Virus record (IMG/VR): IMGVR_UViG_2602041671_000009 | Length of the DNA stretch: 26,300 bases | Source of the DNA: a virus | Lineage: Duplodnaviria; Heunggongvirae; Uroviricota; Caudoviricetes | Reading direction: 5' to 3' (one strand) | The notes under the pieces: model-generated | What the model saw: only the letters and a program-made list of their open reading frames with translations | The model's database searches: none | What the model was told of the DNA's origin: nothing | Position numbers and translations under genes: made by a program | Shown here: one piece after another, positions 16,679-19,575 of the stretch | Layout of the letters: every line of letters begins with the position of its first letter | Position numbering within the stretch: the stretch's first letter is position 1

Positions 16679-17062
16679 TTAATTAGAGTTATTAACAACG
16701 ATATCCATCTCTAACCGGATATCTAATGCCATTAACATCCCTTCAATTATGCCCTCAGCCTTCTGTAACCTTTTCCCGATATAACCATCAGAGCAGCAAT
16801 GCTTACCTGCCAGTGACATGAATGTCATACCGACTACATAATAATCTACTAATAAATCGTGCAAATCGCTGTTGTTCTTTTTCAGACGGGCCATGCACCC
16901 GCAAATGATCATCGCGTCATCGTCACAACATTGCGGGCGAGATTTTACTTTTGAAGGAATTAATCCCTTAAAACCGGCGGCAATGGACGACCAGGTCACA
17001 TCTTCATGATTATTAGCCGCCCACGCTCCCCAACGTTCAAGAACCATCTGAATATCACGCAT
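16679..17062 (-). CDS. Q: late antiterminator Q (QuuD-like)
   Basis: 127-aa product from ATG 17062 ([26 protein letters not shown]...CGCMARLKK...) with GGAG about 9 nt upstream. Note the frame is open upstream into the methyltransferase. Confidence 0.75.
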
Positions 17063-17797
17063 TAACTTTCTCCACAAAATCAGGCCAGCACACCAATCGC
17101 CAGTGCGCGATCGATAAAACGAAATATCAGCTCCAGCTGGGAGCCATGCCGCCATCTCCCTGACCAGTTTTTCCGCCTGCTGGCGAACCTGCGCCAGAAA
17201 GGCCTCACCACATGCCTCAAGTTCATCGCGCCCGATGTAGCTGATTGCCGGTCCCTTCCAGGTCTTGTCGAAAACAGCAATAGCACCAGCGAAGAAAGCG
17301 CCTGTCGGCACCTGCTTCTCGTCCTTCGGGATAAACCAGGCTGGCAGTTCAAAACCAATACGCCCGCGAATAAAAGCAATATGGTCTGCATCTTCCGGCC
17401 ACCAAACTTCGCTGGTGGCAGCTTTGATCAGGAAAACATAGCGCCCGCCTTTATCACGCATGGCACTGGCATGCTTCATGATGTAACGCATGCCGGTGAT
17501 GTATTGCCCCTCATGCTGACTGGCGCGGCTGTACGGGGGATTACCAAAGGCAGCACCTTTAAGCTCCGCAAGACGTTCTGACCAGTCATGCGCCAGCGCG
17601 TTGTCTTCCGCAGTGTAATAAGCGGCGCATTTGGCGTTATCACCATCAGTAAACAGATCCAGAACAAACGGGCCAAACAGGGTGTTAATTCCCCAGAAAA
17701 TGTTGTCCGGCGTGCGCCACTGATCGCCCACTTCCTTCAGTTCATGGGCTGGTTTGTTCCGCAGCTCCACCAGCGCCTGGCAATATTTATTACTCAT
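17063..17797 (-). CDS. phage Dam-like N6-adenine DNA methyltransferase, in-frame continuous with Q
   Basis: Product [72 protein letters not shown]...FGNPPYSR (NPPY amino-MTase motif). No stop codon separates it from the Q codons; ORF 16679-17830 is one 383-aa frame. Confidence 0.65.
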
Positions 17798-18291
17798 TAA
17801 GCCCCCACGTAATTCCCTGACAGATACCACTCTTCACCCGATGCAGCGCGCTTGCTGCTTTTCCGTAAACACCGCTCACGACGCGCAAGAAAATTGTTTC
17901 GCTCTTGCTGGGAGTGGCTTTCACGGAATGCCGCCATCCACACCGTTGCAGCACGACGGTATAAGCCCCTGGACTCCAGTTCTTCCGCCTGGCGGGTCAG
18001 GCACAAAATCACCCGGGGATCGTTAGTGCCGACATAGAAATTGCGCACAGGTCTGGATTCACGAACTGGTTGCGGTTCCGGCTCCTGCGGTATCTCAGTT
18101 AGCCGCGGGAAATGTCTGCGTGTATCCCCTTCACAACGGTGAGCCACACGCCCACTCTGACGTAACTTGCTTGCTGACTGCAGAACGCGCTGTCGTGAGT
18201 AACCTGCAAAAGCATCCGCAATGTCTCCGGAAGTACACCCCGGATGGGCTTCAATGAATTTCTGAACGTCATTCAAAAGACTCATGATCAC
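17797..18291 (-). CDS. hypothetical early protein (YfdN-like; PerC-like C-terminal motif)
   Basis: 164-aa ORF, translationally coupled on both sides. C-terminal [18 protein letters not shown]...[13 protein letters not shown] resembles PerC-family motifs. Confidence 0.4.
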
Positions 18292-18641
18292 CCCCTGAAT
18301 CCTGCCGGGATCTGGCTGTAGTCCACGTTGTCGTAACTGGCTTTGAAGTACGGGTCTTCGCGTTTTTCGGTGTACGTGCTGACGGACGGCGATAAGCGCA
18401 GGGAAAGCTCATCCCATTTTTCCCGCAGCTTCGACGGGCTGAGCACGTTACGGCACCAGAACGGATCGCGACTGACGCGGCTGTACATCTCGCAGATTTG
18501 TTTATGAGTACGACCATCCTGCACACACATCAGGCGAATTTCGTTTGCCCAGGCTGTCCAGTTCGGTTCTTTGGGACGAACCACCTCGCCGTCACATTCG
18601 GCGGCATGCTCGTACAGGGCGATGATTTTTTCCAGAGCCAC
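18288..18641 (-). CDS. hypothetical protein, possibly a detached C-terminal part of the replication initiator (YfdO-like)
   Basis: 117-codon frame beginning at GTG 18641, only 10 nt downstream of the initiator stop; no motif recognised. Confidence 0.35.
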   Translation of the reverse strand: MALEKIIALYEHAAECDGEVVRPKEPNWTAWANEIRLMCVQDGRTHKQICEMYSRVSRDPFWCRNVLSPSKLREKWDELSLRLSPSVSTYTEKREDPYFKASYDNVDYSQIPAGFRG

Positions 18642-18651
18642 TGTGCGCAGG

Positions 18652-19227
18652 TCAAATCATCCTGTGTCCCCCACTGGCGCTTTTTAGGCTGAATACAACC
18701 GCATCAGGATGGCGAGTTAAAAAATCCTGTTCAGCCGTCTGCGTGTCCGGTTGCGAAGAGTCCGGACGAGAAGGTTTTTTATCTGACGGATCATGTTTTG
18801 ATTTTACTGACGGATCCCCGCCAGATTCTGACGGGTGAAAACCCGCTTTTTTGCCAGATTTCGACGCATCAAATTTTGACGGGTCAGATTTTGATGCGTC
18901 AGATTTTGACGGGTCAGAATCTGACAGTTGAGAAAATGCCGCTGCCTGAAGCTTCGCAACGTTAAGCTGATAAACATTCGACGCATTGCGGTTACCCTGG
19001 CGACGCGCCTTACGCGTTAACCAGCCTTCTGCTTCCAGCCGTGCGATAGCCGTTCTGACGGTACTCATCCCCGCGCCAATCTGGCGGGCAATGGTTTCAA
19101 TCGATGGCCAGCACACACCTTCGTCATTACTGAAATCAGCCAGGCGGGCCATAATTGCCACGCTGGATAATTTCATGCCTGACGCTGCGCAACCATCCCA
19201 TACATAGCCGGTTAATTTAGTGCTCAT
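18652..19227 (-). CDS. replication initiator-like protein (N-terminal winged-HTH), iterons within the coding sequence
   Basis: 191-aa ORF with HTH segment WPSIETIARQIGAGMSTVRTAIARLEAEGWLTRKARR, followed by a low-complexity DPSKSDASKSDPSKFDASKSG linker encoded by tandem DNA repeats. Confidence 0.55.
   Translation of the reverse strand: MSTKLTGYVWDGCAASGMKLSSVAIMARLADFSNDEGVCWPSIETIARQIGAGMSTVRTAIARLEAEGWLTRKARRQGNRNASNVYQLNVAKLQAAAFSQLSDSDPSKSDASKSDPSKFDASKSGKKAGFHPSESGGDPSVKSKHDPSDKKPSRPDSSQPDTQTAEQDFLTRHPDAVVFSLKSASGGHRMI
18784..18931. repeat. iteron-like direct repeats (putative prophage ori)
   Basis: About eight copies of a TGACGG(G/A)TCA-containing unit. The last four are spaced 14-16 bp apart (ATTTTGACGGGTCAG / ATTTTGATGCGTCAG / ATTTTGACGGGTCAG / AATCTGACAGTTGAG). 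Confidence 0.55.
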
Positions 19228-19236
19228 GACCGACCT

Positions 19237-19575
19237 CTATTTCCCTGAATTTACGACGAAACTGTTCGAGCGGACTGAAGCACTCATGCTCATAGCCTTC
19301 GCGGAGGTAGATAACCCGTTGTGTTTCCGGTTCCCAACGAATGACTCTGACGGGCACTCCGTAGTGATCTTTGAACCAGCGGTTAACTTGTCGCAAAGGA
19401 CTGTCTCCTTCTGCCGGTTGAAATCCCCCACAGCCCACTCTGCAAAGCTGTGGGTTACAATTTCCCTGTCACCTGGTACATTCACTGCATAGCAATATTC
19501 CACCTTCGCTTTTCCACCCGGTACAGGAAGCGCAATCAGTTGCGAGCGACGGTAGTGTGTTGTTAAACTGTTCAT
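19237..19575 (-). CDS. hypothetical early protein (possibly frameshifted; overlaps a second frame at 19217-19438)
   Basis: 112-codon ORF with ATGA coupling to the upstream gene. A second overlapping 73-codon frame also looks protein-like, so an indel is possible. Confidence 0.3.

Follow-up and report, generated by a model that had tools for sequence, protein, structure and literature searches.

[quoted passage not shown] The N-terminal domain of lambda O belongs to the Phage_rep_O family and its C-terminal domain interacts with P. Nearer in sequence are the replication genes of phages SfIV (gp41) and SfII, which are essentially the same gene as ours (98.3-98.5% DNA identity over the whole 1011-nt query), and that of PhiR29_1, which is 99.6% identical to the query. 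In these three phages the neighbours are also the same, with a DUF4222/ymfM-like ORF upstream and PerC/yfdN downstream, and each record has one ORF of 313 aa, unlike the split found in the present record. SfIV was isolated as a functional serotype-converting phage, and the paper describing it only names orf41-45 as the replication module (PMC3851460). In records of E. coli K-12 strains, a truncated copy of the gene without the 5' part is found next to yfdN, and only nt 267-1011 of the query match. The Rac-type initiator (P0174) resembles ours in its HTH_36 domain, iterons with a TGACCCGTCA core, O C-domain and DnaT-like tail, and differs in that a DnaC-like AAA+ loader gene (Pfam IstB_IS21) lies directly downstream. 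E. coli DnaT (primosomal protein I) has only its extreme C-terminus in common with the initiator.

The window, i.e., the whole stretch of 26,300 nt that was analysed, comes from an E. coli O104:H21-type strain and contains a defective prophage at argU/intD (argU/intD...ompT, the DLP12 site); the initiator gene belongs to the early-right operon of this prophage and follows cro and a cII-like gene, as in lambda. The prophage combines an early region of the CPS-53/e14 type (yfdT-yfdP, ymfK/T/L) with a lysis cassette like that of DLP12 and with truncated structural genes of the lambda type, and is thus a mosaic remnant. It is defective for reasons other than its replication genes: the genes for terminase, portal and J are truncated, and a deletion has removed the nin region. 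The deletion is apparent from the joining of Dam and Q in one ORF (annotated in RefSeq as a truncated Dam pseudogene, a DUF968 fragment and quuD), which implies the internal loss of a nin-like region that SfIV and SfII retain. The coordinates of the features are collected in Table 1.

Table 1. Features of the replication-initiator locus and its surroundings (positions in the window)
Feature	Position	Strand	Description
Whole replication-initiator gene	18288..19227	-	940 nt in the record; 942 nt (313 aa, WP_001356227.1) in the finished genome
ORF-A	19227..18652	-	191 aa, ATG start
ORF-B	18641..18288	-	117 aa, GTG start
First frameshift site	18686..18688		GG in the record against GGG in the finished genome and every homologue; coding strand CCC
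Second frameshift site	18626..18631		T6 in the record against T7 in the finished genome and every homologue; coding strand A7
21 codons between the two deletions	18626..18688	-	Third frame reads PKKRQWGTQDDLTCAQWLWKK, residues 181-201 of the intact protein
N-terminal winged-helix DNA-binding domain	18928..19227	-	aa 1-100, Pfam HTH_36; presumed iteron binder
Iteron cluster, presumed origin	18778..18931	.	Eight TGACGGGTCA-type sites with alternating TGAC/GTCA half-sites; encode disordered SD(P/A)SK linker
Tandem core of the iteron cluster	18855..18918	.	15-nt period, 4.3 copies (Tandem Repeats Finder score 86-100)
Lambda-O-type C-terminal domain	18369..18732	-	aa 166-287 of the intact protein; both frameshifts inside
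C-terminal tail	18291..18317	-	SQIPAGFRG; 8/9 residues identical to the E. coli DnaT C-terminus SQIPPGFRG
yfdN	17797..18291	-	PerC-family regulator in the lambda P position; Pfam PerC, 2.3e-9; RefSeq annotation
Dam-Q fusion ORF	16679-17830	-	383 aa; Dam methylase domain aa 29-209, antiterminator Q domain aa 257-374
ymfM-like ORF	19237-19575	-	112 aa, annotated in SfIV
DUF4222 ORF	within 19217-19438	-	RefSeq annotation
Deletions relative to NZ_CP009106.2	1077, 1192, 1804, 2065, 3968, 7390, 9011, 13149, 13775, 15376, 18626, 18687, 21167, 24800		14 single-nucleotide positions

The sequence-only reading of the window had described a replication initiator possibly split into frames of 191 and 117 codons with a 10-nt gap. 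Both frames and the gap (18642-18651) are present on the minus strand, and the two ORFs derive from a single gene of the size of O, but the split itself is almost certainly not biological: the comparison of sequences points to two single-base homopolymer undercalls, i.e., sequencing errors. When the window was aligned with the chromosome of E. coli 94-3024 (NZ_CP009106.2), 14 differences were found over the 26,300 nt, which are otherwise identical, and all 14 are 1-nt deletions in homopolymer runs (0 substitutions). Two of these deletions (18626 and 18687) break the initiator gene, and several of the other 12 fall in unrelated chromosomal and prophage genes. On the coding strand of the intact gene, the bases missing from the window are a C from a CCC run and an A from an A7 run, and the latter run (18626..18631) is also contracted in other error-prone assemblies. 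The gene is a single 942-nt ORF encoding 313 aa in E. coli 94-3024 and in SfIV, and the intact protein is also encoded in a second finished assembly, CP023541.1 (O104:H21 CFSAN002236).

The same was found more widely. The initiator ORF was uninterrupted in 80 of the 80 IMG/VR loci that were retrieved with the family alignment. In a megablast search of E. coli complete genomes, 1576 records had at least 80% query coverage; all 19 of the full-coverage matches listed span 1013 nt against the 1011 nt of the query, and these 19 have one gene for a "helix-turn-helix domain-containing protein" between the DUF4222 gene and yfdN. Phages SfIV, SfII, PhiR29_1 and others share this arrangement. Separate, conserved genes for proteins of 191 and 117 aa were not found among the homologues, which are encoded by a single 313-aa ORF. 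By exact look-up in the protein collection, the 191-aa ORF was not found; the exact 117-aa ORF was found in other public records, of which every one examined is frameshifted, with the A7-to-A6 contraction and a different second homopolymer deletion in each. Such a combination is typical of error-prone assemblies and does not point to a conserved pair of genes. Since the window and the finished genome differ in homopolymer runs only, the gene is intact in finished assemblies, viral contigs and phages, and the codons between the two deletions are correct in the third frame, we regard the split as an artefact. We conclude that the window gives the sequence of this strain in an unpolished form and that the gene of the organism is intact; the residual probability of a real double mutation is small. 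As an overall explanation, one lambda-O-type initiator gene with an internal iteron origin, split in the record by artefact, is very probable.

Two other explanations of the split were considered. Had the frameshifts been real mutations, the initiator of this isolate would be a true pseudogene, carried by a cryptic prophage in decay; the prophage has already lost other functions, so that selection on the initiator could be relaxed, and homopolymer runs are hot spots of slippage and mutation. Against this stand the restriction of every difference in 26.3 kb to homopolymer contractions, the deletions that hit unrelated genes and the intact gene in two finished assemblies of the lineage, and we consider a real pseudogene very unlikely. 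Alternatively, the two ORFs might encode naturally separate products, a DNA-binding and a recruiting subunit, or might be joined by programmed frameshifting. Short stand-alone O C-domain proteins do occur in the databases, namely phrog_2357 (124 positions) and 117-aa entries named "Primosomal protein I", and 25 of the 135 newly retrieved O C-domain representatives (among the 150 best hits) are shorter than 180 aa. However, all of the stand-alone 117-aa entries examined proved to be copies frameshifted in homopolymer runs, joining of the ORF frames would take two shifts 58 nt apart, the break falls within a conserved helical domain, and a single chain is encoded in all 80 viral contigs and in viable phages. 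The reading as separate products is effectively refuted.

The single-gene reading also fits the protein family. The intact protein matches phrog_391 ("replication initiation O-like") end to end, its aa 1-313 aligning with all 298 profile positions at an E-value of 4.4e-135, and ORF-A and ORF-B, when compared with this O-like family, each match one half of the profile, so that the proposal of a replication initiator made from the letters alone was borne out. In the Pfam search, HTH_36 was matched at aa 23-70 (E about 2e-11 to 4.2e-11) and nothing was matched in the C-terminal half; PF04492 (Phage_rep_O), the family of the lambda O N-domain, gave no match at E 0.1 or better, whereas lambda O itself matches it at 5.7e-36. 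An AlphaFold2 model, built with a 17-sequence alignment, has a winged helix (helices and a beta wing) at aa 1-100 (pLDDT 69-90), a disordered stretch at aa 103-185 (pLDDT 26-55), and a helical domain at aa 189-278 (pLDDT 80-90) that is followed by a disordered tail. Matches of the full model in Foldseek were winged-helix regulators (MarR-type) and covered the N-domain only, and a PDB sequence search with the family profile likewise gave only weak matches to winged-helix proteins of the MarR type. When the family alignment was compared with lambda O by hhalign, aa 166-287 aligned with O 171-280 (probability 99.5%, E 2.4e-23, 41% identity over 110 columns). Judged by this profile alignment, the C-terminal half is a genuine lambda O C-domain.

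The full-length query gave 2352 protein matches at E <1e-5, typically single chains of 290-340 aa, and the O C-domain alone matched 2771 clusters at 50% identity, mostly at the C-terminal end of proteins of 250-380 aa. A homologue search with the 117-aa ORF returned short fragments only; the architecture was seen with the full-length query. The locus is an ordinary example of a replication module that is very common in enterobacterial prophages, is known already and is annotated in many genomes and isolated phages.

The iterons are a further point of likeness with lambda. About eight repeats of the TGACGG(G/A)TCA type had been noticed inside the initiator coding sequence, where they were read as encoding a low-complexity linker as ori-lambda does within O. 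Eight were found in the minus-strand gene, all within 18784-18931: six TGACGGGTCA sites with two or fewer mismatches (18784, 18808, 18829, 18877, 18892 and 18907) and two more with 3 mismatches (18862 and 18922). Over the 26.3-kb window, 40 matches to TGACGGGTCA at this stringency were observed on both strands, a number that none of 100 shuffles reached, against about 19 expected; since the chance expectation is about 0.1 per 133 nt, the cluster of eight is far beyond chance. The repeats encode SDSDPSKSDASKSDPSKFDASKSGKK, with coding-strand units such as TCT GAC CCG TCA AAA for SD(P/A)SK, and the encoded linker is predicted to be disordered. The units consist of inverted half-sites, which can be read as TGAC-N2-GTCA or as GTCA-AAATC-TGAC, the latter being more lambda-like. 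The eight sites occupy nt 297-444 of the gene (the array was also delimited as nt 301-450), between the two domains of the initiator, a placement corresponding to that of the lambda iterons, although eight short iterons with a 15-nt tandem core are found here in place of the four of 18 nt.

Iteron units are found at the same gene position in relatives from Klebsiella (L087), Pantoea (L089) and Rac-type E. coli (L085), and the TCAAAATCTGAY nucleotides are fixed across these relatives while the residue encoded may be P, A or T. In an E. coli variant with 56% identity (L091), this position is taken by another repeat, GAAWCTGAACGTCCA, which fits co-variation of initiator and iterons. The copy number also varies, with 15 nt more in L072 and 15 nt fewer in L096, and across the protein family the linker changes in length in 5-aa steps. 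As for other origin elements, the GC content in 40-nt windows at 18760-18900 is 0.40-0.43, a modest AT enrichment; a discrete AT-rich unwinding element was not found in such windows (lowest GC about 40-42%), and a clear AT-rich tract like that of lambda was not evident. DnaA boxes, as an alternative route of initiation, were rejected, since none occurs near the initiator gene and the whole window has one against 2.8 expected. A promoter and terminator scan gave nothing informative.

On these grounds the intragenic iterons are likely to be the origin, and we hold this with good confidence. The repeats might instead do nothing but encode a low-complexity linker that expands and contracts by slippage, with the real origin elsewhere; the lack of a strong AT-rich element next to the repeats and of DnaA boxes would agree with this, as would the repeat being in frame (15 nt, 5 aa). 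A coding role only is improbable, however, because the units are palindromic half-sites (TGAC/GTCA), the form to be expected if a dimeric winged-helix protein binds them, the unit codons (TCA AAA TCT GAC) are fixed across E. coli, Klebsiella and Pantoea under varying residues, the L091 variant has another repeat in the same place, and the position agrees with that of the lambda origin. For the iterons as origin, a mechanism may be proposed by analogy to lambda: initiator dimers would bind the palindromic iterons inside their own gene, and the bound initiators would assemble into an O-some, to which the DnaB helicase of the host would be recruited. As P and DnaC genes are missing from this phage lineage, we infer that the helicase would probably be delivered in complex with DnaC of the host.

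From the cII-like gene to Q, the window has no gene resembling P, DnaC or DnaB, in agreement with the sequence-only reading, and none is present in the annotation of this prophage in the finished genome. Where lambda has P after the initiator gene, the present prophage has yfdN, and downstream of it the Dam fragment that is fused to Q. In SfIV, the same initiator is followed only by regulators, a DUF968/HNH gene and Q, and no recognisable loader was seen in SfIV, SfII, PhiR29_1, other Escherichia phage records, or relatives from Klebsiella, Pantoea and elsewhere; a DnaC-like AAA+ gene lies directly downstream of the initiator in two relatives, the Rac type (L085) and L102. The suggestion that the module may be defective for want of a loader is not sustained, because the same arrangement is found in the viable, isolated phages SfIV and SfII and in the other records just named; as far as gene content can tell, the absence is lineage-typical and gives no sign of a defective module. 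Literature searches (ydaU/ydaV, the DnaT tail, and loader-less lambdoid modules) returned no direct description.

Two further observations concern the neighbouring genes. In several relatives with a GFRG tail (L085 6724-7494, L091 5985-6716, L103 4491-5156, and L106 1474-2217), the initiator or the DnaC-like gene is followed closely by a DUF1627 gene (about 220-256 aa), which is absent from the window. Upstream of the initiator (19217-19575, minus strand), the ymfM-like ORF and the DUF4222 ORF overlap in different frames; ymfM is an SOS-inducible filamentation gene according to a preprint (10.1101/2020.11.19.390815).

The C-terminal tail of the initiator is shared with DnaT of E. coli, which ends in SEPDSQIPPGFRG (dnaT, L004 3479-4018), and 14 of the last 20 residues are common to DnaT and the Rac-type relative. 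P..GFR is invariant in 17 of 17 diverse family members while the preceding 25 residues are highly variable, and the tail is present in most near-full-length members. A tail of the GFRG type also occurs where the O C-domain is joined to unrelated N-terminal domains. In lambda O and its close relatives the ending is instead TDWxxG(L/V)x(V/L), so that IPAGFRG here stands against the lambda-type TDWxxGxxL. Homology to DnaT beyond the tail was considered and rejected: hhalign aligns the last 9 residues only, a Pfam search gives no common family, and the DNA-binding domain of DnaT (PF17948), which E. coli DnaT matches at 3.7e-21, has no hit in the initiator. The label "primosomal protein I" is thus a misnomer, and the tail, the only part that the two proteins share, is the likely source of the "primosomal protein" annotations.

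The kind of tail was compared with the kind of loader in a sample of gene contexts. Among 10 contexts with a GFR(G) (DnaT-like) tail, two have a DnaC-like loader, none a lambda-P loader and eight no recognisable loader, whereas all three contexts with a lambda-type tail (TDWxxGLxV) have a lambda-P loader, and none of them has a DnaC-like loader or lacks a recognisable one. For the presence of lambda P (0/10 versus 3/3), Fisher's exact test gives p of about 0.0035, for contexts that are not phylogenetically independent. Genetic links between dnaT and dnaC have been noted (PMC13377028), and a term search of that paper gave nothing on the tail. The C-terminal tail of O-type initiators may conceivably be a docking peptide that specifies the helicase-loading route, a doubtful proposal that we put forward only as a lead. 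The DnaT-like IPxGFRG tail would then direct the initiator to a DnaC-type loader, the phage's own or the host's, and the lambda-type tail to lambda P.

The main value of the present locus is cautionary. Homopolymer undercalls occur about every 2 kb in this record, so other split or frameshifted ORFs in it are suspect, and the split ORFs of the window need to be checked against the finished genome before they are interpreted. What remains after this correction is a module composed of an O-type initiator and an internal iteron origin, without a loader of the phage. Further work could be worthwhile on one point, the DnaT-like tail, which may bear on how the host helicase is captured by loader-less lambdoid phages. 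If the docking proposal were true, the tail would explain the replication of loader-less phages such as SfII and SfIV, and the uncharacterised C-terminal tail of the host DnaT would gain a function.
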